64,000 nt of DNA from Patescibacteria group bacterium (lineage in GTDB: Bacteria; Patescibacteriota; Patescibacteriia; Patescibacteriales; UBA12465): assembly GCA_041661685.1 (NCBI GenBank), contig JBAZTY010000001.1, positions 320,691-384,690 of the forward strand, given 5' to 3'. Position numbers and translations under genes: made by a program. Under the pieces are notes generated by a model that was given only the letters and a program-made list of their open reading frames with translations, did no database searches and was not told where the DNA came from. Shown here piece by piece: positions 11,685-64,000 of the stretch. How positions within the stretch are numbered: position 1 is the first letter of the stretch; the number at the start of each line of letters is the position of its first letter.

Positions 11685-13694
11685 TTATTCTACTCGCCCG
11701 GAATTATTCAAGCCGGCGATATCATCATCTTCTAACTTAGTGGTCTTGGGGCTAGTCTTCTTAACAATGGTCTCCTTGGTTTCCGTATCAGTCGCGCTGA
11801 CGGTCGCGCCCGGAGATAGTACTAATATCTTGTTACGGTCACTCTCTGACGGCGTCAGGCTGATGCCGAATTCCGCATCTACGCGATACACCGAAACCGG
11901 CAAGCGGCCGATTTCCCAAATCACTTGGCGCGTCGCATTGTCATAATAAATATTGCCGACATTAGTCGTATTATTATTATCCCAAACCACATAGCTCGGC
12001 AGAGCCAGAACCACGCGCGCATCAGTCAGCTCGTGAAGATTATTCTTCACTGTCCAGAAGACTTTAACGCTAGTTTTCTCTCCAACCTTGGGCGGCAAAG
12101 GGCCGGAACCAACCGGCATATTATCGCTGTTAAAATAAAGGATTGACTCGCTTAATGACAAGTCGCTATTGATCTTACTCGTAATAGTATTACTCTTATT
12201 CTCGTCATTCTTAACCGCCTTATTATTCATGCTGTATTGCCCATAAGAAATTACGGTCATATTCTTGCCCTGATCACTATCCTTAAAAGCGGACAGATTA
12301 AGGTTGAAATCGACTGTGCCTTCTTCGCCCGGCTTAATTTCCGCCAGTCCCGGAATCTCATTCTTAGTCCAGATAATCATATTATTCCTGATCTCGCCTT
12401 TCTTTTCATCGACGAGCGAATTCCAATTCAAGAAATCGCTATTCAGCGCGGCCATAATCACGACGTCCTTATAAGCAGCGCTGCCATGATTAGAATAAGT
12501 GAGAGAATAATTCAGCGGCTGGCCGAAAGTCAGAGCGCCGTCATTCTTCGAGCCGTTCAGAATCATGGTCAGATTTAAATCGCTCGAAACTAATTCCGGC
12601 TTAAAAGATTTTTCCCAAAAAACATAAGGCTCCCCGTTTTCTAATTTCTTTTCCAATCTCACCTTTATCTCTAAATTATCGGATTTCTGTTTAACCTTAT
12701 AGGCCAAAGGCACTTCTTGGCGGCCGGACGCTTGCAGGAGATTGCTGACCTGCCAGCTGGCGCCGCCAGCCTTAGAGACGATTATCTTAGTCGAAGTGCC
12801 GAGGGCGGCAGTAGACGATGCCGTAGTTGTCGCTTGACCATTCTCGGAAGTGACGACTGACGCGTTCGCTTCGACCGGGAGCATAAAAGAAATATTGAAA
12901 TCACCGAGATAATTATTTTGGACATCAGACAAAACGAGCGTAATCTCGTTGTCCTGATTAAGGAAAGCGGTATTGGAATAGCTCAGATCTACATTAAAAC
13001 CTAGACCATTAACGATAGTCGAGGCCGAAGCTTCTTTCTTGAATTGGCTAGATAAGGTCCCTGGATTATAACTCAGATAGCCGACGATAACGTTGGCGGA
13101 ATCCGGCTGATTAATGAGACGACCGGTGATAGTTAGCGAGTTAGTCGCTCCCGAATCCATATCAGGAATATCCCAACCGCCATTGCCGCTATTAGGAGCG
13201 ACAGAAGCGGAAGCAAAGACAAAATTCTCCGGGTATTTAATCTCTAAGCGCGCCTGCGACAAAATATATTTAGTCGGATTATGGTAAGTCACCTTATAAG
13301 AGAACTCTTCTCCGGCTAAAATATTTTCCGGTGCAGCGATTTTGAAATCCAAACCGTTCACGTCATTGCCGTTAGACAGCCAATAAGAGTAAGCGAAATA
13401 ACCAGCCGCGCCGATCAGGGCGAGGACCAGTAGCTTTCTTAATAACCTGACGAAGAAATTCGGGCGCTTCTTAATATTCATTTTCTTGACGTCGACATGC
13501 CCGCCTTTCTTGTCGCGATATATCTCTGAAAGATTGGAGTCTATCTCGGCTTCGCGCACTTCGCGGCCGACGACGCGTTCGAAAGTGGCCACTTCTTTTT
13601 CGGTCGGCACGGGCCGTTCCACGAATGAAGACAGGCTGGATGCCTCATCTCGGCCGACTTTCAGGATTCTTTTTATTTTTTTCTCTTCAGGCAT
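11685..13694 (-). CDS. Hypothetical single-pass membrane protein with a large extracytoplasmic beta-rich domain
   Basis: 669 aa. Charged N-terminus, one TM (LLVLALIGAAGYFAYSYWL), then long repeat-like Ig/DUF11-style segments (LTITGRL..., ITLVLSD..., LNYSLTYSNHG). No catalytic motif recognised. Confidence 0.75.
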   Translation of the reverse strand: MPEEKKIKRILKVGRDEASSLSSFVERPVPTEKEVATFERVVGREVREAEIDSNLSEIYRDKKGGHVDVKKMNIKKRPNFFVRLLRKLLVLALIGAAGYFAYSYWLSNGNDVNGLDFKIAAPENILAGEEFSYKVTYHNPTKYILSQARLEIKYPENFVFASASVAPNSGNGGWDIPDMDSGATNSLTITGRLINQPDSANVIVGYLSYNPGTLSSQFKKEASASTIVNGLGFNVDLSYSNTAFLNQDNEITLVLSDVQNNYLGDFNISFMLPVEANASVVTSENGQATTTASSTAALGTSTKIIVSKAGGASWQVSNLLQASGRQEVPLAYKVKQKSDNLEIKVRLEKKLENGEPYVFWEKSFKPELVSSDLNLTMILNGSKNDGALTFGQPLNYSLTYSNHGSAAYKDVVIMAALNSDFLNWNSLVDEKKGEIRNNMIIWTKNEIPGLAEIKPGEEGTVDFNLNLSAFKDSDQGKNMTVISYGQYSMNNKAVKNDENKSNTITSKINSDLSLSESILYFNSDNMPVGSGPLPPKVGEKTSVKVFWTVKNNLHELTDARVVLALPSYVVWDNNNTTNVGNIYYDNATRQVIWEIGRLPVSVYRVDAEFGISLTPSESDRNKILVLSPGATVSATDTETKETIVKKTSPKTTKLEDDDIAGLNNSGRVE

Positions 13695-13711
13695 ACTATA
13701 TAAATTAAGAT

Positions 13712-16249
13712 TTATTTATTTATTTCTAAAAGGAGAGAGTAATACTTATCAGCATCAAGGGACGCATTTATTTCCCAGCCGCTGCTGCCGGCCAAGTTTT
13801 CCGGAAAACGCCAGAAAACCGTCAGATTTTCCGGCAAGCGCAAATGGCTCGTAAATTCGCTCGGACGCGATCCCGGCTGCTTCTGAACCAAAAGCGAATA
13901 AGGCAGCAAATCGGGCGTATCTGTGTTTAACCAATCATTCAAGCGTTTCAACCAGCTATTATCGACTTCTTTGCTAAAAATATTAAAAGGCAGGCGATAC
14001 CTTATCACTACAGTCGCCGTCTGCCCCGGATCGACCATCAGCCAATTCGCGAAGACGGTCTTGCCGCTCTCTTCATATATCTTTACGCCGGTCGCGCTAT
14101 CAGTCTTCGCCGCCGCTTCCGCGGCTAATAAAGGATTCTTTTCCCAATCCGCTTCCGGCTTCTCCTGCAGATATTTCGCTTCTGGAGAGACGAAGCCGCT
14201 CGCCGTCATCAGTTCGCTGCCTTGCGGCACATAGACGCGCAGCCAATCGACGTTGCGCACGCCGGTGAGCGCCTCATTCTTCAAGCCGGTATGCGTCCGT
14301 GTAATCGTTACGGTATTAATAAGGCCGCCGTCGCTACCGACTTCGCTAGCGAGATCTATCTTTTCGCTCATTAATCGATCGGATTTCTGACCGGCGATAT
14401 TCGTATTGACGACCATTAAATAGTCCTTATCAGTCGGACGCACCGCTCCAGCCCAATTGCGATTCGCGAACTCGGCTTGCAGCGCCGAATCGTTGAAATA
14501 GAATAAAATCTGCTTTTCAGCCATGTCCTCTTCGAAGACAGTAATTATCTTAACCAGATTCTCCCGATTCAATTTCTGTGGCAAAATTTCCAATATCTTT
14601 GCCATAAGATCGCCGATGATTTTCTTCGGCTTATTATCAATGTTATTTTCCAAATCCTGTTCTAAGGGCAGGCCGGATTTTATAACTGTCGAAGTTGCGG
14701 GAATATCAATTATAGCCTCCGGATGAGTCTTAGCCAGATTCTTCTGCTCCGTAATCTTCTGGACGGTTTCCCAAAAATTATTCGCGTCTATCGTCAGGCC
14801 GTATTCTTTTTGCAAATCAATCGGACCAGTGATTTCCAACAAGCGCTCAACAACTGTCGGCGTCACGCCAATAACGCCGTCAACGCTTGGTCCGCCGCTC
14901 TTTTCATAAAACCAAGTAAGATTCTTCGCCGTTGTCGGCCAATCTGGCCACCAATTCGCGTCCCAAAAATGCCAGAGGGGATTAACTAGCCAAAGCGGCT
15001 CCGGCGCGACCACCCTGACTTTCATGCCGCCTTCGGTATCATAAGAACCGCCGCCCGGAACTTCGAGATTGCTGATCCGGCCGCCCTTGATATCGACGAG
15101 CGCGTAGCTGCCCAAGAAGCCGCCGCTCGCGCGCATCTCCGCGTTATTCTGAAAGACTAATAAATATCGCTTATCGCGGCTAAGTCCCAAGACTTCCTTG
15201 AGCTTGGCTCCGGCGGAGACGAAATTATCAAGATTGTTAGACAATAATCCGGCCTGCTGGCTCAAAGATTCGAACTTAGCCCGATAAGCTTCCGGCAGAT
15301 TATCCGGATTTATCTTAGCTATCGTTTTTTTCAAAGACTTAGCGTCGGTTACGGCCAGATTGCCGTAGGCTAAAAAATTATCCAGAGAAACGCTGAAATT
15401 TTTCTGGTTGCCGCTGAATAAGCTGTCCGTCGCAAGCACGAGATTCCTTCCTAAAGAAGCGGCTGATGCGCCGGCTGCTAAAAATTTCTTGCTCTCGGCG
15501 GCTAATTTTATCTTGGGGTCGCTAGAAAAAGAAGCGAGAACCAAAATAGAATCATTGATCTTATTTAAATCATTCTGCGCTTCCAGGAAATTAGCGCCGG
15601 CCGCTTGGAAATCAGTGTCTGCTCCCTTCAGATCCATCCTGGAAACGGAATCAGCGGCCGCCATCAAGCTATTCACGGCCGACTCAGAACGGCTGATTAT
15701 TTTCTTCTCTAAATTTTTAAAATTAAGAATATCAAACGCGGATAATATTTTAAAAGGTAAAATAATAATAAAGAGGATTAAGGAAAAATATAAGACAGAA
15801 CGATGCCAGGCCGCCGGGACTTCCGTTTCATTAATCTTCTTCCCTTCTTTATGGGCGCGACCGCTCTTCAAACGAGAAGAACTTTGAAGGCGCGATATTT
15901 TAAGGCGCAAAGCTTTCTGCCAAGCCGCCTCGCGCGCTTGAAGCTCCGTAACCCAGACCGGACCCTTTTTCTTAAAAAAACGTAAATGAGAAATAATATC
16001 CTTCAGATCAAGAACCGGACGATGCTTATGGCTAGGGGTTAATAAATCGGGAAGCGTCTTAAATTTTTTCTTGACTATTTTCATTTCTTTCTTGAGTATC
16101 TCAATCCCTCGGCCGACCTCGATTTTAACCTCCCGTTTCAATTCAGCTTCCGCTTTTTTCTCTACCTGGCGCAAGTCTACGACAAAATTAGAGAAACGTT
16201 CTCTATCTAAATTCTGATTATTCGCTTGTATCTTCTGACTATTAGCCAT
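13712..16249 (-). CDS. DUF4012 domain-containing membrane protein
   Basis: 845 aa. Basic N-terminus, a TM (VLYFSLILFIIILPF), and the characteristic DUF4012 core RYLLVFQNNAEMRASGGFLGSYALVDIKGGRISNLEVPGGGSYD. Confidence 0.8.
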   Translation of the reverse strand: MANSQKIQANNQNLDRERFSNFVVDLRQVEKKAEAELKREVKIEVGRGIEILKKEMKIVKKKFKTLPDLLTPSHKHRPVLDLKDIISHLRFFKKKGPVWVTELQAREAAWQKALRLKISRLQSSSRLKSGRAHKEGKKINETEVPAAWHRSVLYFSLILFIIILPFKILSAFDILNFKNLEKKIISRSESAVNSLMAAADSVSRMDLKGADTDFQAAGANFLEAQNDLNKINDSILVLASFSSDPKIKLAAESKKFLAAGASAASLGRNLVLATDSLFSGNQKNFSVSLDNFLAYGNLAVTDAKSLKKTIAKINPDNLPEAYRAKFESLSQQAGLLSNNLDNFVSAGAKLKEVLGLSRDKRYLLVFQNNAEMRASGGFLGSYALVDIKGGRISNLEVPGGGSYDTEGGMKVRVVAPEPLWLVNPLWHFWDANWWPDWPTTAKNLTWFYEKSGGPSVDGVIGVTPTVVERLLEITGPIDLQKEYGLTIDANNFWETVQKITEQKNLAKTHPEAIIDIPATSTVIKSGLPLEQDLENNIDNKPKKIIGDLMAKILEILPQKLNRENLVKIITVFEEDMAEKQILFYFNDSALQAEFANRNWAGAVRPTDKDYLMVVNTNIAGQKSDRLMSEKIDLASEVGSDGGLINTVTITRTHTGLKNEALTGVRNVDWLRVYVPQGSELMTASGFVSPEAKYLQEKPEADWEKNPLLAAEAAAKTDSATGVKIYEESGKTVFANWLMVDPGQTATVVIRYRLPFNIFSKEVDNSWLKRLNDWLNTDTPDLLPYSLLVQKQPGSRPSEFTSHLRLPENLTVFWRFPENLAGSSGWEINASLDADKYYSLLLEINK

Positions 16250-60340: not shown

Positions 60341-62116
60341 ATGTCCATACTGCTCCAAGTCAGCGAACTCAGCAAAGAATACGGCGGCCAGAAGATCTTT
60401 TCCGGCCTGTCTTTTGCCGTCTCGGAAAAGCAGAAGATCGGCGTTATCGGTCGTAACGGCGCCGGCAAATCAACTATGTTTCGGATAGTCACAGGCGAAG
60501 AAAAGGCCGATAGCGGCGATATCATCATTCATTCCGAAGCCAATATCGGCTACTTAAAACAAACCGATAGCTGGCAGCCGGGGGAAAGCGGTCTGGACTA
60601 TCTCGTGCGCGAGAGCCATAAGCCAGAATGGCGCGCCCAACAAGTAGCCAGCAAGTTCGAGCTCGATGCTGAGAAATTAGGGCAAGCCGCTTCGAGCCTA
60701 TCCGGCGGCTGGCGCATGCGCTTGCGTCTCACCGGCATGCTCTTAAAAGATCCGAATCTTTTTCTCCTCGACGAACCGAGCAATTATTTAGACCTTAATA
60801 CCCTGATCTTACTAGAAGATTATCTGCGCGCCTATCGCGGCAGTTTCCTTATAATCTCTCATGACCGCGAATTCCTAAAACGCACCTGCAACGAGACGAT
60901 CGAAATCTCGAAGACGAGCTGCTATCATTACCCGGGAAATATCGAAGCCTATCTCGCTTTCAAGGAACAGAAGCTCGGCTCCCTCCTGAAAGCCAACGCG
61001 AGCTTAGAGCGGCAGCAGGAACATTGGCAGGAATTCATCGACCGCTTCCGCTATAAGGCCTCGAAAGCGAAACAGGCCCAAGCCATGGCTAGAAAAATTA
61101 CCAAGTTAGAAGAAAAAAGAATCACGGACGAGCACCAAGCCGGTATCACCCGCATCACGATTCCGCCGGTTCCCAAACGCAGCAATTTCGCTCTTAAGAT
61201 AAACGATCTCGATATCGGCTATGCGGATAAGGACGAAATTTCTAAAAAAGTCATTGCTTCAGAAATTGATTTTGATTGCCGCGCTGGCGAGAAGCTCGCT
61301 ATCTTAGGGCTGAACGGCCAAGGTAAGACGACGCTCATCAAGACCCTGACCGGGCGCATCGCGCCTTTACGAGGAGCCTATAAATTCGCGGCTAATAGCC
61401 GCCTTGCTTATCATGGCCAGGAAGAGATTGACCGGATGAACGGCAAGGAACAGGCTGGTGATTTCTTAAGGCGCTCGGCCGCGAGCGAAGTCAAGACCGA
61501 AGCAGTCCTAAAAATGGCCGGCGATTTCTTATTCAAAGATGAAGAACTGAAGAAGCCGATTTCCGTCTTATCCGGCGGCGAACGGGCGCGATTATTACTA
61601 GCGGGATTATTGCTATCGAAACCAGATACCCTGATTCTTGATGAACCGACCTGTCATTTAGATTTCGAGACGACCGAAGCTCTAGCCAATGCCCTGCAGA
61701 AGTTCGCCGGGACAGTCCTATTCGCGAGCCATGACCGGACCTTCTCGAGCCTGGTCGCGACCGGGATAGTCGAGATAAAGGACGGGCAGGCTAAGCGCCG
61801 CCACGAAGATTACGGCGATTATGTCGCGAAACTTGAAAAGGACTTATGGCAGAAATCCCAGGAAGAGCCGGAACCGGCTAAAGACAAAGCCGAGAGCCGG
61901 GAAAAATATCTCGAAAATAAGGCTAGAATAAAAAAAATCCAGTCCCTCGAATGGGAACTGGAAAAGATGCAGGCGTACAAGGAAGAGCTGATGGCTTATT
62001 TCTTAGAGCATTATCATGACTATAAACCGGAGAAAGTCGAAGAGCTAGAAGAACTGAAAAGAATGATCAAGGATAAGGAGGAGTTGTGGTTGGAGTTAAA
62101 TAATGAGGGGGAATAA
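60341..62116 (+). CDS. ABC-F family ATPase (translation-associated, EttA/Uup-like)
   Basis: 591 aa with two cassettes and no TM domain (GRNGAGKST / LSGGWRMRL / FLLDEPSNYLD, and GLNGQGKTT / LSGGERARL / LILDEPTCHLD). Has a charged coiled-coil C-terminus. Confidence 0.92.
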   Translation: MSILLQVSELSKEYGGQKIFSGLSFAVSEKQKIGVIGRNGAGKSTMFRIVTGEEKADSGDIIIHSEANIGYLKQTDSWQPGESGLDYLVRESHKPEWRAQQVASKFELDAEKLGQAASSLSGGWRMRLRLTGMLLKDPNLFLLDEPSNYLDLNTLILLEDYLRAYRGSFLIISHDREFLKRTCNETIEISKTSCYHYPGNIEAYLAFKEQKLGSLLKANASLERQQEHWQEFIDRFRYKASKAKQAQAMARKITKLEEKRITDEHQAGITRITIPPVPKRSNFALKINDLDIGYADKDEISKKVIASEIDFDCRAGEKLAILGLNGQGKTTLIKTLTGRIAPLRGAYKFAANSRLAYHGQEEIDRMNGKEQAGDFLRRSAASEVKTEAVLKMAGDFLFKDEELKKPISVLSGGERARLLLAGLLLSKPDTLILDEPTCHLDFETTEALANALQKFAGTVLFASHDRTFSSLVATGIVEIKDGQAKRRHEDYGDYVAKLEKDLWQKSQEEPEPAKDKAESREKYLENKARIKKIQSLEWELEKMQAYKEELMAYFLEHYHDYKPEKVEELEELKRMIKDKEELWLELNNEGE

Positions 62117-62119
62117 AAA

Positions 62120-62157
62120 AATAGGGTTGAGAGCCTTATTTTTTTTATTACCCTATT
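62120..62157. other. Inverted repeat at the GC-content break after the ABC-F gene
   Basis: AATAGGGT (62120..62127) and ACCCTATT (62150..62157) separated by a 22-nt T-rich loop. Possible terminator or island boundary. Confidence 0.3.
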
Positions 62158-62263
62158 AATCTATTTTAGTTCGAAATATCACGATTTTACCACTTTTTCA
62201 GTCACAATAGCGTCACAACTTTTTGTTTCGCTAGCAATACAAGGGGAGGTGGTAGAATTGATG

Positions 62264-63124
62264 CTACTTATTAATCTTATTTTTTAAATCCTCCAAATAA
62301 TAATAAGGGGCTATTTTTGATTTGAGCGACTTATTCACTTCCCTTAAAACTAGCTTCTTATCCTTTTTGATAACTTTTAATAAAAAGGCAAAAAAAGTAC
62401 AGGGTTCATGCTTGCCGGTTTCCTGGAAATTTAACATTTGGATCAATATGGGAACTAATATTTTTGGATTAAACGCTAAGAGCTTTTTAACTAAAGAGGA
62501 ATCTTTAAAAACTTTATCGCCATTTTTCTCAATTTGTTTTAAAATATTTTCTAATTCCTCGGCCTTAGCCGTTGATACTTGTTTTAAAAATTTATTAATA
62601 TTTATCTTTTTTCTATCTGTTAGCTTCTTTTCAAGTAACAATACAATCCAATCGTTAGAAAGATTAATTAAATTATGAAAGTTTCCCCAACCATTCTCTT
62701 TAACTACATAAAACCAACTTCGCCAAGATTTTAATTGGCTGTTATAGTATTCTTTAGAAAATTTAGAATAATCGGAATAGGATGAGTCTTTCTCCGTCGG
62801 GACTTCTCTGATTAAAGAAAAAACAAACTCTATTTCTTTATGTAATGGAACAAACCCTTTATTTTGGGGTTTAATTTTTCCTAAGATTCTAATTTTAGCG
62901 TTAAGTGCTTCCGGATGAGGGCCTAATAAATTAATTTTATCAGTCGTAAAGCCATGCGGTGGCAATAAAATAATTCTTTTAACCATTTTTGGATTCTCTT
63001 CTTTTAAGCGAATAGAAAAACTAGCCGGCCGTTCAACAATCTCATAGTCATTTGATTGAAAAAGTTGTTTTATAGTCTTCTTGAATAGCGATGATTCTAT
63101 GATTTGTTTAGATGTGAATGGCAT
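62264..63124 (-). CDS. Hypothetical protein in the AT-rich island
   Basis: 286-aa Lys/Asn/Ile-rich ORF, 43 nt downstream of the AAA_13-like ATPase gene with no intervening hairpin. No recognisable motif. Confidence 0.6.
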   Translation of the reverse strand: MPFTSKQIIESSLFKKTIKQLFQSNDYEIVERPASFSIRLKEENPKMVKRIILLPPHGFTTDKINLLGPHPEALNAKIRILGKIKPQNKGFVPLHKEIEFVFSLIREVPTEKDSSYSDYSKFSKEYYNSQLKSWRSWFYVVKENGWGNFHNLINLSNDWIVLLLEKKLTDRKKININKFLKQVSTAKAEELENILKQIEKNGDKVFKDSSLVKKLLAFNPKILVPILIQMLNFQETGKHEPCTFFAFLLKVIKKDKKLVLREVNKSLKSKIAPYYYLEDLKNKINK

Positions 63125-63167
63125 TGAGATAAAAAAAATATCTTTAGCGTAAAATTAGAAATAAGCC

Positions 63168-64000
63168 CTAGCAACTCCCCTCTAAAATTTTATAGTGTAT
63201 CGGGTCAGATTCTTTTACTATATTAAGTAAAATTTTAATGGCATCTTTACTTTCGCTCTTGTCTTTGTGTTCAATCGTGCTTGTTGGATCAGAATTATGT
63301 GAAAATTCATTAACTAATTTATATGCTTTATTCCAGTCCGCATCACTTATTCTATCTTGCTCTTCTTTATCCGTATTTAATTCTTTTACTATTGCTTCCA
63401 TTTTTTGCTTTTGATCTCGTGAATCTGGAATTTTGAAATCTGCGAAAATATCAAAGAATCTTCTTGCGACATTTCCTATAGTATAAAAATCGGCATAATC
63501 CAGATCAACATCTTTAAACTTGTTTAATAAACTAAATAAAAAATGATATTCCGATTTATAGTCTCGTAGTGTTTTATCTAGTTCAACAATTTTGGCCTTT
63601 CGTATGTTTGATTCGGTAAAATTTTCAATCATAAAAAATTCGCAAGGAGTTGGCTTTTTGGCTTCATTACCCGATTTTTCATTGTCTTTTTTATTGTGAT
63701 TATTTTTATTAATAAACCATTCTTTCACTAGATTGAAAAGTTGAAAATTGTGTGTAGAAATAAAAATTTGTCCTACTTCTTTAAAACTTGTATTTATTAA
63801 TGAAAAACAATGATAAATAAAGTTTGAATCAAAACTAGAAATAGGATCATCAATAAAAATAATCCCATCTTTAATTTGAAATTCCTTTTCTCCAACTTTA
63901 ACGATAAAATAAGAAAAAGCTATGGCAGTTTTTTCTCCTTCACTTAAATTTTTTGCGGATTGCCCATCTCTTTTAATAATATAACCTTTTTTATTATCGT
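63168..64000 (-). CDS. AAA_13-like (PrrC/RloC-type ABC-fold) ATPase, C-terminal part; N-terminus lies beyond the window
   Basis: The track starts this ORF at a GTG (63728), but the frame stays open to nt 64000: ...KKGYIIKRDGQSAKNLSEGEKTAIAFSYFIVKVGEKEFQIKDGIIFIDDPISSFDSNFIYHCFSLI...ISTHNFQLFNLVKEW... It has an ABC signature-like LSEGEK, a Walker-B/D-loop IFIDDPISSFD, then SEYHFLFSLL, GNVARRFFDIF and LVNEFSHN, as in AAA_13 family C-termini. Confidence 0.7.
   Translation of the reverse strand, partial: DNKKGYIIKRDGQSAKNLSEGEKTAIAFSYFIVKVGEKEFQIKDGIIFIDDPISSFDSNFIYHCFSLINTSFKEVGQIFISTHNFQLFNLVKEWFINKNNHNKKDNEKSGNEAKKPTPCEFFMIENFTESNIRKAKIVELDKTLRDYKSEYHFLFSLLNKFKDVDLDYADFYTIGNVARRFFDIFADFKIPDSRDQKQKMEAIVKELNTDKEEQDRISDADWNKAYKLVNEFSHNSDPTSTIEHKDKSESKDAIKILLNIVKESDPIHYKILEGSC

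Follow-up and report, generated by a model that had tools for sequence, protein, structure and literature searches.

The closest described relatives of the locus reported here are two kinds of anticodon nuclease in which an ABC-type ATPase is joined to a HEPN-type RNase. RloC, whose prototype is GkaRloC from Geobacillus kaustophilus (COG4694; Pfam AAA_13), excises the wobble nucleotide, and its catalytic triad has been defined as Arg-X3-Glu-X36-52-His, often with a Ser before the His (PMC2610378). PrrC is encoded within the type Ic restriction-modification (R-M) locus EcoprrI, where it forms a second line of defence. That R-M and an anticodon nuclease can be layered in this way was recognised with PrrC/EcoprrI, and comparative genomics catalogued such arrangements in 2013. 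ABC-HEPN proteins of the RloC/PrrC type have been reported to be linked to R-M operons and also to RhuM (PMC3710099). A further label, PDC-S06, stands for a single-gene computational candidate, for which the papers found give neither a mechanism nor validation, and the name says no more about function than 'AAA_13 in defence islands'.

We analysed a stretch of 64,000 nucleotides from a Patescibacteria (CPR) metagenome-assembled genome, hereafter the window, whose AT-rich end is probably the 3' end of a ~6.8-kb defence island gained by horizontal transfer. The island would consist of an AIPR gene and a four-gene R-M operon with a RloC-like anticodon nuclease, while the 286-aa protein encoded last in the operon (U286) would not be a general component. 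A sequence-only reading had interpreted the two genes visible at the window end as a two-gene unit; judged from the extended sequence, they appear instead to be the truncated tail of an R-M operon with an RloC-type anticodon nuclease.

Over positions 62117-64000 the GC content is 0.291, whereas 302 equally long sliding windows taken over the rest of the window average 0.464 (sd 0.021, minimum 0.407; z = -8.1). This supports the foreign composition proposed from the raw sequence, where a fall from the mid-40s to about 30% GC had been estimated by eye after the ABC-F gene (ORF at 60341-62116, plus strand) and the computed change is from 0.464 ± 0.021 to 0.291. The GC profile locates the break between ~62100 and ~62200, immediately 3' of the ABC-F stop. 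The low-GC stretch spans ~2800 to 9600 of L037 (the contig of the window itself, with 99.99% identity over 11.7 kb, used to view the sequence past 64000; window coordinate = 71730 minus L037 coordinate), and the island lies 17-18 points below the GC of its host. The bias towards Lys, Asn and Ile that had been noticed by eye is likewise borne out, with island and rest of the window differing at 14.1 vs 7.6%, 7.3 vs 5.3% and 9.4 vs 7.5%, respectively; Phe is also raised (7.5 vs 4.2%), and Ala (3.6 vs 8.8%) and Gly (3.0 vs 7.3%) are depleted.

At this border, the inverted repeat AATAGGGT...ACCCTATT exists as described and is part of an A-tract/stem/U-tract hairpin (62107-62154, by RNA folding) between the convergent ABC-F and U286 genes. 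As plus-strand RNA, positions 62105-62170 fold with a ΔG of -19.1 kcal/mol (z -3.0), a value equalled by 0 of 200 shuffles, and the hairpin looks like an ordinary bidirectional, intrinsic terminator-like structure. It belongs to the host side of the junction: the alignable homology to a second copy of the operon module, described below, ends just inside it. Searches for direct repeats or att sites flanking the island returned AT-rich chance matches only, and the mechanism by which the window copy integrated was not found. In relatives whose ABC-F is 94% and 85% identical, the slot downstream of ABC-F is occupied by other R-M systems, comprising NgoFVII, a C5-methyltransferase and Vsr in one locus (L089) and TaqI with a methyltransferase in two (L090 and L091). 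The island itself is missing from these related genomes, the comparison that the sequence-only reading had proposed as a check, and the survey reveals a hotspot for defence genes 3' of ABC-F in Patescibacteria with small genomes.

The window contains just the final 1.3 genes of the operon. That no more than a 3' part was visible had been recognised, and extension of the contig past 64000 gave the full ATPase gene together with upstream R-M genes. On the source contig the order is N6/N4 methyltransferase, DpnII-type endonuclease, AAA_13 gene and U286 gene, separated by 4, 7 and 43 nt, with the AIPR gene alongside. Promoter and four genes form a portable module of 5.26 kb, of which the 3' part lies at 62155-64000 (minus strand, delimited by alignment to L038) and the remainder extends ~3.4 kb past the window end (L037 4334-9575). 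Its second copy, at L038 5732-10969, aligns over 5262 bp with 87.5% identity and has other surroundings, an integrase-bearing element in which the module adjoins an integrase, an excisionase-type HTH and a Rep gene. The methyltransferase gene has a GC of ~0.40; the rest of the module stays at 0.25-0.33.

The predicted endonuclease matches PF04556 (E=1.3e-92, Pfam) and PADLOC REase_II (1e-89), and the PF01555 methyltransferase gene (PADLOC MTase_II, 4e-90) ends 4 nt upstream of it. These predicted genes thus show the adjacent endonuclease and DNA N-methyltransferase that define a type II R-M system of the DpnII family, and the endonuclease is presumably GATC-specific. Further downstream, the AAA_13-U286 spacer (63125-63167, minus strand) had been described as 43 nt without a hairpin, which agrees with its folding energy of -4.2 kcal/mol (z +0.7); neither a terminator-like site on the minus strand nor a stable hairpin was found in it. 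Promoter-like sites that might serve U286 separately number 8, against 9.0 ± 2.8 expected from shuffles, and are not in excess. The AAA_13 and U286 genes are probably co-transcribed.

The minus-strand ORF that is open to the window edge ends at 63168, so that 63168-64000 holds two bases of codon 507, the C-terminal 276 codons (residues 508-783) and the stop; the complete gene, recovered from L001 and L037, encodes 783 aa. The motifs LSEGEKTAIAFSYF, IFIDDPISSFD, SEYHFLF, NVARRFFDIF and NEFSHN, on which the original assignment to AAA_13 and the PrrC/RloC kind was based, all occur exactly in its translation, and profile searches confirm the assignment. Against PF13166 (713 positions, gathering threshold 36 bits) the fragment scores E=5e-55 (187.9 bits, model positions 482-710) and the full-length protein E=1.8e-120 (404.3 bits, positions 1-710). 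PADLOC places both in PDC-S06 (E=1.9e-74 and E=2.6e-158, respectively), with residues 1-780 matching positions 1-735 of the 740 in PDLC04894 and five further PDC-S06 models matching at E of 6e-43 or better.

Each of the ABC ATPase motifs expected of RloC is present. Walker A is G34-x4-GKT41 (G34WNRSGKT), with G39, K40 and T41 invariant in 23 homologues. The remaining motifs lie on the minus strand within the window: the signature L525-S-E-G-E529 at 63933-63947 (L525, S526, E527 and E529 invariant, G528 in at least 90%), Walker B with the D-loop, I553-IFIDDPISSFD564, at 63828-63863 (D557, D558 and D564 invariant) and the invariant switch histidine H590, in STHN, at 63750-63752. An invariant C287-L-F-C290 constitutes the central CxxC (putative zinc-hook) motif of a coiled-coil insert, and in the AlphaFold2 (AF2) model a non-helical CxxC loop is flanked by long helices at 120-172, 297-326, 341-377 and 394-478, where pLDDT is mostly 81-93. 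The motifs of the protein are kept across 23-28 homologues and are collinear with K44, C291, D572 and R692/E696/H737 of GkaRloC. Were the ATPase instead a housekeeping protein of the SMC, RecF, RecN or ABC-transporter type, the island would be a mere compositional oddity. Such a protein would share the generic ABC motifs and the Rad50/SMC-like head fold, and NCBIfam returns ABC transporter ATPases, though weakly (E ~3e-3, far below the cut-offs). The AAA_13 match over the full length (E=1.8e-120), the lack of the gene in close relatives of the host, its consistent placement within R-M operons and mobile elements, and a GC 17-18 points below that of the host leave this explanation next to no credibility.

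The ATPase also appears to bring its own effector, in the form of the C-terminal RloC-type nuclease motif set R686-x3-D690-x50-S740-H741. R686-R687-F-F-D690 (63450-63464, minus strand; codons AGA AGA TTC TTT GAT), with both Arg invariant and D690 present in at least 90% of sequences, would correspond to the Arg-X3-Glu of the RloC/PrrC triad, and the invariant S740-H741 (63297-63302, minus strand) to the catalytic His and the Ser that often precedes it. Measured against the RloC definition, the motif agrees in the Arg, Ser and His, all invariant, and in the interval of 50 residues between D690 and H741, which lies inside the X36-52 range, but the acid is Asp, not Glu. The RloC/PrrC branch of the HEPN superfamily is characterised by an all-α domain that has a conserved catalytic His (the R-x4-6-H region) and a conserved acid. 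Residues 647-782 are all-helical in the AF2 model, with moderate local pLDDT and with the invariant H741 and N737 at a helix end. Foldseek gave no structural match of this domain to a HEPN domain, and because the model is mediocre (pLDDT 71, pTM 0.41, residues 1-120 below 50) a HEPN fold is suggested by the motifs and the helical content. The best matches of the whole model are Rad50, SMC and LmuB heads; we take these as support for a Rad50/SMC-like head only, because the model is moderately confident and its N-terminal head poor. No PrrC or RloC structure was found in the PDB for comparison.

The genomic setting of this protein recurs well beyond its host. We surveyed 47 other loci with AAA_13 homologues at 49-81% identity; of the 35 informative ones, at least 28 have the homologue at the 3' end of an R-M operon, these operons being of several types. 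Among the 35 loci with an upstream gene, 18 have an N6_Mtase/S fusion before the homologue, 5 an N6_N4 MTase and 2 an AlwI REase; single loci show Type ISP, Vsr and HinP1I, HsdR lies downstream in 4, and RhuM genes were seen here as well. Hosts include CPR bacteria, DPANN archaea and various other uncultivated lineages. This highly conserved clade, whose members from bacterial and archaeal phyla are 58-95% identical, is almost always found at the 3' end of R-M operons, joined to at least five types of R-M enzyme (type I, ISP, AlwI, HinP1I and DpnII). Linkage to so many types suggests that the nuclease reads something common to them, such as DNA ends or failed restriction, and not a specific protein partner. 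On these gene neighbourhoods, the conserved genetic partner of the AAA_13 protein would be the upstream R-M system.

U286, encoded at 62264-63124 on the minus strand, had been found to resemble nothing recognisable, and this holds for sequence profiles (no match in Pfam, PADLOC, NCBIfam, PHROG or PDB sequences) but not for structure. The AF2 model (pLDDT 94.5, pTM 0.87) comprises an N-terminal double-stranded β-helix (~27-168), the fold by which the cupin superfamily is recognised, and a C-terminal helical bundle (177-285). Foldseek returned 152 PDB matches with E ≤ 1e-3; nearly all of the best 50 are cupins, including tm1459 (E=5e-6), cysteine dioxygenase, ADO and the CENP-C cupin, with TM-scores of 0.6-0.7 when normalised to the target and ~0.3 when normalised to the query. 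The matches cover ~40% of the protein at most. Viral cupins and 2-oxoglutarate (2OG) oxygenases are also similar. The family comprises 111 homologue clusters of ~285 aa, and no Pfam model matches the cupin-helical body in 37 members; an Mrr_cat match was rejected as a family trait, being confined to the foreign N-terminus of one chimeric protein (P0031).

Cupin motif 1 is G(X)5HXH(X)3-4E(X)6G and motif 2 is G(X)5PXG(X)2H(X)3N. Motif 2 of U286, G145-x-G147-x2-H150-x3-N154, is canonical from G147 to N154 (62663-62686, minus strand; G147 invariant, H150 and N154 in at least 90%), and motif 1 is reduced to H70-x-E72...G82, with Ala at the place of the fourth ligand. The proposed metal ligands are H70 and E72 of H70-P-E72 (62909-62917, minus strand; codons CAT CCG GAA), both invariant in 37 sequences, and H150 as the third. 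Fe(II)/2OG oxygenases have an HxD/E...H facial triad and a basic residue to which the C5 carboxylate of 2OG binds. Together with the invariant K166 on the last β-strand, H70-x-E72...H150 would be compatible with such a site; no 2OG-oxygenase Pfam model matches U286, and its structural matches are generic cupins. The most conserved stretch of the helical domain, E235-T-G-K-H239-E-P-C242-T (62396-62422, minus strand; G237, H239 and C242 invariant), recovered 34 loci when used as a search pattern and is a possible second metal or substrate site. The likeliest reading of U286 is a cupin enzyme that depends on a metal bound at a 2-His-1-carboxylate site, and possibly an oxygenase of the Fe(II)/2OG type. 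Literature searches gave no functional data on cupins in anti-phage defence; a confidently folded cupin family that lacks annotation and is common to CPR and DPANN may deserve biochemical attention.

The two genes at the window end are not found together elsewhere. A 286-aa homologue was found within 6 kb of AAA_13 in 0 of 47 loci, including those at 81% identity, and AAA_13 was near U286 homologues in 0 of 36 other loci (34 in species-representative genomes, two on metagenome contigs). The genes beside U286 homologues are a mutually unrelated mixture of housekeeping, toxin-antitoxin and mobile-element functions, and the U286 gene is lower in GC than its flanks in 30 of 34 loci. Most likely the U286 gene moves independently and was added at the 3' end of a single operon lineage, without being a general component. 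Two other roles were considered and rejected. A hidden restriction endonuclease is at odds with the cupin fold and with the families listed for 60 immediate neighbours (28 upstream, 32 downstream), which include no methyltransferase family; a general role as antitoxin or silencer of the nuclease is contradicted by the 47 close AAA_13 homologues without U286.

The same counts bear on the cassette proposed from the raw sequence, in which AAA_13 and U286 would be a self-sufficient defence or abortive-infection system. On such a model an SMC-like ATPase would act as sensor for a separate effector, like LmuB with LmuA in Lamassu. The genes are adjacent and of common foreign composition, the ATPase matches LmuB weakly (E=5e-12) and Lamassu LmuB is among its Foldseek matches. 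However, the PDC-S06 match (E=2.6e-158) far exceeds that to LmuB, the ATPase possesses a conserved nuclease-type C-domain of its own, and U286 is a cupin and not a recognisable nuclease, protease or NADase effector. Lamassu is recognised as a conserved pair of LmuB beside an LmuA-type effector; here the LmuB score (E=4.9e-12) is accompanied by a cupin downstream and the pair is not conserved. With co-occurrence in 0/47 and 0/36 loci, we consider a partnership of this kind very improbable, and what had been put forward as a candidate for an undescribed system makes up the 3' half of an R-M operon with four genes.

A subtler alternative is that U286, although not general, is no passenger but a lineage-specific accessory, for example a cupin oxygenase that modifies tRNA or DNA to tune, license or protect against the nuclease or restriction enzyme. 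The U286 gene lies on the same strand as AAA_13 and 43 nt behind it, no terminator intervenes, and it has been inherited with the other three operon genes in two genomic contexts. Compared with the L038 copy, its dN/dS is 0.077 at a dS of ~0.6, similar to that of the methyltransferase gene, and the gene is kept under purifying selection. The conserved 2-His-1-carboxylate-like site is also of the kind used by the nucleic-acid oxygenases AlkB, TET and JmjC. Because U286 has been kept over a dS of ~0.6 and is probably co-transcribed, a lineage-specific functional tie is possible. Nevertheless, purifying selection indicates a useful gene and is not proof that it works with its neighbours; U286 is missing from all 47 other loci of the AAA_13 clade, even at 81% identity, its family stands alone among mutually unrelated neighbours in 34 genomes and two contigs, and it matches no known defence family. 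An accessory role is in our view unlikely. It is more doubtful still that U286 founds an undescribed cupin oxygenase family (H-x-E...H), horizontally spread in CPR and DPANN and recruited here as a third layer to R-M and anticodon nuclease. If true, U286 might oxidise the tRNA wobble base or a DNA base, allowing discrimination of host from phage by the nuclease or DpnII, or reversal of self-damage.

Returning to the R-M operon with its RloC-like nuclease, we tentatively propose how such a locus might act. The four-gene operon would be self-contained, with its own promoter, and the AIPR gene, of abortive-infection type, would form the other part of the island. By analogy with known systems, the R-M enzymes would serve as the first line of defence. 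The AAA_13 protein is predicted to have a Rad50-like ABC head split by a long coiled coil with an apical CxxC zinc hook, and to end in an all-helical HEPN-type RNase domain, which the ATPase/zinc-hook module may hold silent as in PrrC and RloC. Subversion of restriction, or a build-up of DNA ends in the course of infection, could then release the RNase to cut tRNA anticodon loops and stop translation, so that the infection aborts. Sensor and effector would thereby be combined in one polypeptide. The tRNA target, the activation trigger, the GATC specificity and the chemistry of U286 are parts of this model that we infer.

Among the described families, the cupin superfamily (tm1459-type Mn cupins, cysteine/cysteamine dioxygenases and JmjC/2OG oxygenases) shares with U286 the fold, motif 2 and a remnant of motif 1, and U286 differs by an extra conserved helical domain of ~110 aa with an invariant G-x-H-x2-C. 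DpnII-type R-M systems resemble the operon, whose PF01555 N6/N4 methyltransferase gene is followed directly by the gene of a PF04556 endonuclease. In the pneumococcal DpnII cassette there are two methyltransferase genes, whereas this operon has a single one and is extended by the AAA_13 and cupin genes.

With PrrC in EcoprrI, the likeness lies in the predicted ABC-ATPase-HEPN RNase within an R-M operon, and some loci of the AAA_13 clade even have the order hsdM/S, nuclease, hsdR (L040, L043 and L079). PrrC has no coiled-coil/zinc-hook insert, its PADLOC model having 372 positions against the 783 aa of the protein here and matching the ATPase part only (residues 446-624, E=1.4e-7). It is also always linked to type Ic systems, whereas the linkage is to type II (DpnII) here and to type I, ISP, IIS or IIP in relatives; on both counts the AAA_13 protein falls outside PrrC.

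The closest correspondence is with RloC. The length is similar (~780-800 aa), the CxxC of the coiled-coil insert (C287/C290) lies close to where GkaRloC has C291, and the C-terminal Arg, acid and His (686/690/741) likewise lie close to 692/696/737 of GkaRloC. JGI gives close homologues, one of them 95% identical, the product name of RloC, 'wobble nucleotide-excising tRNase', an activity that for the protein here is only predicted. The two differ in the acid of the triad, Asp here and Glu in RloC, and in genomic linkage: classical rloC is reported to be rarely linked to R-M (8 of 72), compared with at least 28 of 35 loci in this clade. Because the clade, unlike classical RloC, is R-M-linked in at least 80% of loci, it may be regulated more like PrrC.

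The terminal stretch that the sequence-only reading had singled out as a candidate two-gene cassette of foreign origin has the composition and layout described there. GC content drops sharply, from a mean of 0.464 in the rest of the window (s.d. 0.021, minimum 0.407 over 302 sliding windows of equal length) to 0.291 in the last 1884 bases (62117-64000), corresponding to z = -8.1, and a 400-nt profile places the break at ~62100-62200, directly past the ABC-F stop at 62116. Two co-directional minus-strand ORFs are present, one of 286 aa (U286, 62264-63124) and an upstream one (AAA_13) that terminates at 63168 and runs on, still open, to the edge of the window; their products are enriched in Lys, Asn and Ile, as had been proposed, and also in Phe, and are poor in Ala and Gly relative to the rest of the window. 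All of the ATPase peptides that had been quoted are found in the translation of the open ORF, and RNA folding revealed no stable hairpin in the 43-nt spacer between the two genes. The inverted repeat at the GC break is likewise real and belongs to an A-tract/stem/U-tract hairpin (dG -19.1, z -3.0) between the convergent ABC-F and U286 genes, which resembles a common bidirectional terminator. Across the host portion of the window (1-62116), GATC is scarce (277 observed vs 378 expected from trinucleotides, ratio 0.73); it and ACGT (ratio 0.70) rank near the bottom of the 16 palindromic tetramers, and the GATC scarcity would fit, though weakly, with restriction pressure at GATC sites, past or ongoing.

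Only the 3′ part of the locus is visible in the window, as had been noted. An exact-sequence look-up of the U286 protein returned two short Logan contigs, L001 and L002, that are 100% identical to the window across the overlap, of which L001 adds 2.5 kb beyond the edge. A U286 version with a different start led to L037, the window's own contig (202 kb; window coordinate = 71730 minus L037 coordinate), which is 99.99% identical to the window across 11.7 kb. The gene order in L037 is Vut_1, AIPR (PF10592), N6_N4 methyltransferase (PF01555), DpnII endonuclease (PF04556, E=1e-92), AAA_13, U286 and the convergent ABC-F, with the five genes from AIPR to U286 on the same strand. The full-length ATPase has 783 aa and matches PF13166 with E=2e-120, which bears out its proposed family. 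The last four island genes are separated by gaps of just 4, 7 and 43 nt, and low GC spans ~L037 2800-9600, roughly 6.8 kb. With the methyltransferase and DpnII genes lying upstream, beyond the edge, the window holds just the 3′ end of an R-M operon of four genes.

The AAA_13 clade is strikingly conserved (58-95% identity across the best 120 hits), and sources among the few labelled hits include Patescibacteria, WOR-1, Nanoarchaeota, Parachlamydiales and Bacteroidota. Its neighbourhoods were surveyed at 47 loci from a metagenome scan (49-81% identity), with neighbours sorted by clustering and Pfam annotation. An immediately upstream gene was available at 35 loci, and in at least 28 of them it is an R-M gene: an N6_Mtase + Methylase_S fusion in 18, usually behind a ResIII/HsdR_N gene; an N6_N4 methyltransferase in 5, behind an HTH C-protein, RadC-Dam methylase and AlwI endonuclease; AlwI endonuclease itself in 2; and a Type ISP enzyme, Vsr and HinP1I endonuclease in one each. 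A full HsdR lies downstream at 4 loci, and RhuM and serine recombinase genes recur. The conserved partner of the ATPase is thus R-M, nearly regardless of the type of system.

The same survey does not support U286 as the unknown effector partner of the ATPase. Neither a U286 nor a DpnII homologue was found within 6 kb at any of the 47 AAA_13 loci and, reciprocally, no AAA_13 or DpnII gene was found near U286 at any of 34 loci from a scan of species-representative genomes. Of the proposed two-gene cassette, the foreign island and its AAA_13 ATPase stand, and the partnership is unsupported. The U286 neighbours at the 34 loci are mutually unrelated (histidinol dehydrogenase, glutamine synthetase, RNase HII, HD phosphohydrolases, some toxin-antitoxin or mobile genes), and no DNA methyltransferase was found among the families listed for them. 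U286 GC lies below that of its flanks in 30 of the 34, by 0.08 on average, as would suit a gene that moves on its own. Two homologues nearer to U286 in sequence (73% and 71% identity) adjoin HD, DUF3795 and 2-thiouracil desulfurase genes (L087 7001-8713; L088 291-2556), and HD/YfbR-type genes also lie beside U286 in 2 of the 34 genome loci; these HD/desulfurase neighbours faintly suggest a connection with the metabolism of nucleosides or modified bases. The most divergent homologues (30-34% identical; loci L027, L028, L031, L033 and L034, from Bacteroidia and Proteobacteria) are all preceded by one homologous family of ~215-290-aa genes, the sole recurrent neighbour of the U286 family, which overlaps U286 by 4 nt in three of these five loci and has a confirmed HTH_3 domain in one member.

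Homologues of U286 form 111 clusters of ~285 aa, the few labelled ones coming from Patescibacteria and DPANN archaea. The protein had been described as matching nothing recognisable, and at the sequence level this holds: PADLOC, NCBIfam, PHROGs and PDB sequences gave zero matches, as did Pfam for the whole family save a single chimera carrying Mrr_cat as a foreign N terminus. Its fold, however, is recognisable. The AF2 model is confident (pLDDT 94.5, pTM 0.87) and comprises a β domain (27-168) and a helical bundle (177-285), the former being a cupin by Foldseek (tm1459, E=5e-6; cysteine and cysteamine dioxygenases; CENP-C cupin); matches in the viral structure library are cupins and 2OG oxygenases. 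H70-x-E72 is invariant in the alignment, as are K166, in the final strand, and, within the helical bundle, G237-x-H239-x2-C242; G147-x2-H150-x3-N154 is a canonical cupin motif 2. From these residues we infer a putative 2-His-1-carboxylate metal site, as in Fe(II)-dependent oxygenases. The homologue P0031 (277 aa) has the C-terminal portion of an Mrr-type restriction endonuclease domain (PF04471) in place of its first ~60 residues and is probably a recombination chimera.

The four-gene operon is itself a mobile module. The same methyltransferase - DpnII - AAA_13 - U286 block, with U286 89% identical, occurs on contigs L038 and L039, and L037 4334-9575 aligns to L038 5732-10969 with 87.5% identity over 5262 bp. 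Homology begins at a promoter-like stretch, TTGACT...TAAAAT, just past the AIPR terminator, and stops at window 62155, ~40 nt from the ABC-F stop; the L038 block has another chromosomal setting, alongside genes for a tyrosine integrase, an HTH_17 protein and Rep. The promoter-like stretch, 68 bp long, heads the R-M operon in both copies (L037 4334-4401; L038 5732-5799) and is duplicated at L038 4494-4561, before a second small operon (81-, 187- and 64-aa proteins); it is possibly a common regulatory region. The AIPR-family (abortive infection) gene (L037 3105-4292, equivalent to window 67438-68625, beyond the edge; GC ~0.35) adjoins the operon but lies outside the shared module and has its own terminator hairpin, so the island was pieced together from two or more acquisitions. 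Window 62214, where L001 and L002 end, is the exact break point in two independent Logan assemblies (SRR6484324 and SRR18595301); it lies 50 nt beyond the U286 stop and 59 nt in from the end of the module. The shared break suggests an assembly-graph branch, i.e., alternative downstream contexts in those samples.

Pairwise comparison of the two copies, gene by gene, gave a dN/dS of 0.015 for the methyltransferase (dS 0.59, amino acid identity 98.5%), 0.19 for DpnII (dS 1.74, 58%), 0.067 for AAA_13 (dS 0.35, 94.9%) and 0.077 for U286 (dS 0.64, 89.2%). The DpnII gene (L037 5283-6203 vs L038 6681-7598, outside the window) is the outlier, both flanking genes being far more alike, and from this pattern it looks as if it alone was replaced by a divergent allele. 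The values indicate that U286 is a functional gene that has stayed with the module, as a lineage-specific functional link between them would have it; set against the separation of the two families in both locus surveys, we regard such a link as unlikely. U286 is more probably a passenger cupin gene of an uncharacterised family.

The site downstream of ABC-F holds other genes in relatives. A 'Patescibacteria group bacterium' MAG encodes an ABC-F protein 100% identical to that of the window, and homologues of it led to three further contigs. In L089 (ABC-F 94% identical) the flanks are syntenic, with HD_4 - ABC-F on one side and Vut_1, a 220-aa gene, desulfoferrodoxin and rubrerythrin on the other, and the slot (11845-15090) carries Vsr, a LexA/S24-fused C5 methylase, an NgoFVII-type endonuclease and two unannotated ORFs. 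In L090 and L091 (ABC-F 85% identical; L090 14945-16570) it carries purA, IMPDH, an N6_N4 methylase, a TaqI-type endonuclease and a HIT gene. This differing content marks the slot as an R-M hotspot and the island, absent from all three, as no core feature, in keeping with the foreign defence island first proposed. The L089 C5 DNA methylase (524 aa) is fused to LexA_DNA_bind and Peptidase_S24, an unusual architecture that hints at SOS-type control of the R-M system. The 220-aa gene has zero Pfam matches and low GC (0.34-0.41 in L037), yet is syntenic in all three relatives (L037 1284-1946; L089 17861-18523; L090 17337-17999), and low GC alone is thus no mark of foreign DNA in this genome.

In PADLOC the ATPase matches the single-gene candidate PDC-S06 (E=3e-158), which the papers found list solely as a prediction; other matches are weak (LmuB, 5e-12; PrrC, 1e-7, ATPase part only). 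Close homologues, including one 95% identical, are named 'wobble nucleotide-excising tRNase' by JGI. The AF2 model (pLDDT 71), in which the N-terminal head is poorly predicted, shows a CxxC loop flanked by long helices and an all-helical region at 647-782; its top PDB matches by Foldseek are the heads of Rad50, SMC and Lamassu LmuB, and PDB searches found no PrrC or RloC structure. By analogy with PrrC and RloC, the R-M pair would restrict incoming DNA, and the Rad50-like ATPase and zinc hook would hold a C-terminal RNase silent until DNA ends accumulate or restriction fails; the released RNase would then cleave tRNA anticodon loops and abort the infection. Attachment of the clade to at least five R-M types would make a common DNA-level cue likelier than a specific protein contact.

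RloC is defined by ABC motifs, a Rad50-like coiled-coil/CxxC zinc-hook insert and a C-terminal triad, Arg-X3-Glu-X36-52-His, often with Ser preceding the His; the G. kaustophilus residues are K44, C291, D572, R692, E696 and H737 (PMC2610378, PMC3458546). AAA_13 is collinear with this protein nearly residue by residue, with Walker A (G34WNRSGKT), CxxC (C287-L-F-C290), ABC signature (LSEGE, 525-529), Walker B/D-loop (IIFIDDPISSFD, 553-564), switch His (H590) and a C-terminal R686-R-F-F-D690 followed 50 residues on by S740-H741, and each key residue is either invariant across 23-28 homologues or conserved in at least 90% of them. The one difference noted in the triad motif is an Asp in AAA_13 vs the Glu of RloC. 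AAA_13 is therefore an R-M-linked, predicted ABC-HEPN nuclease of the RloC/PrrC type, an already known kind of system.
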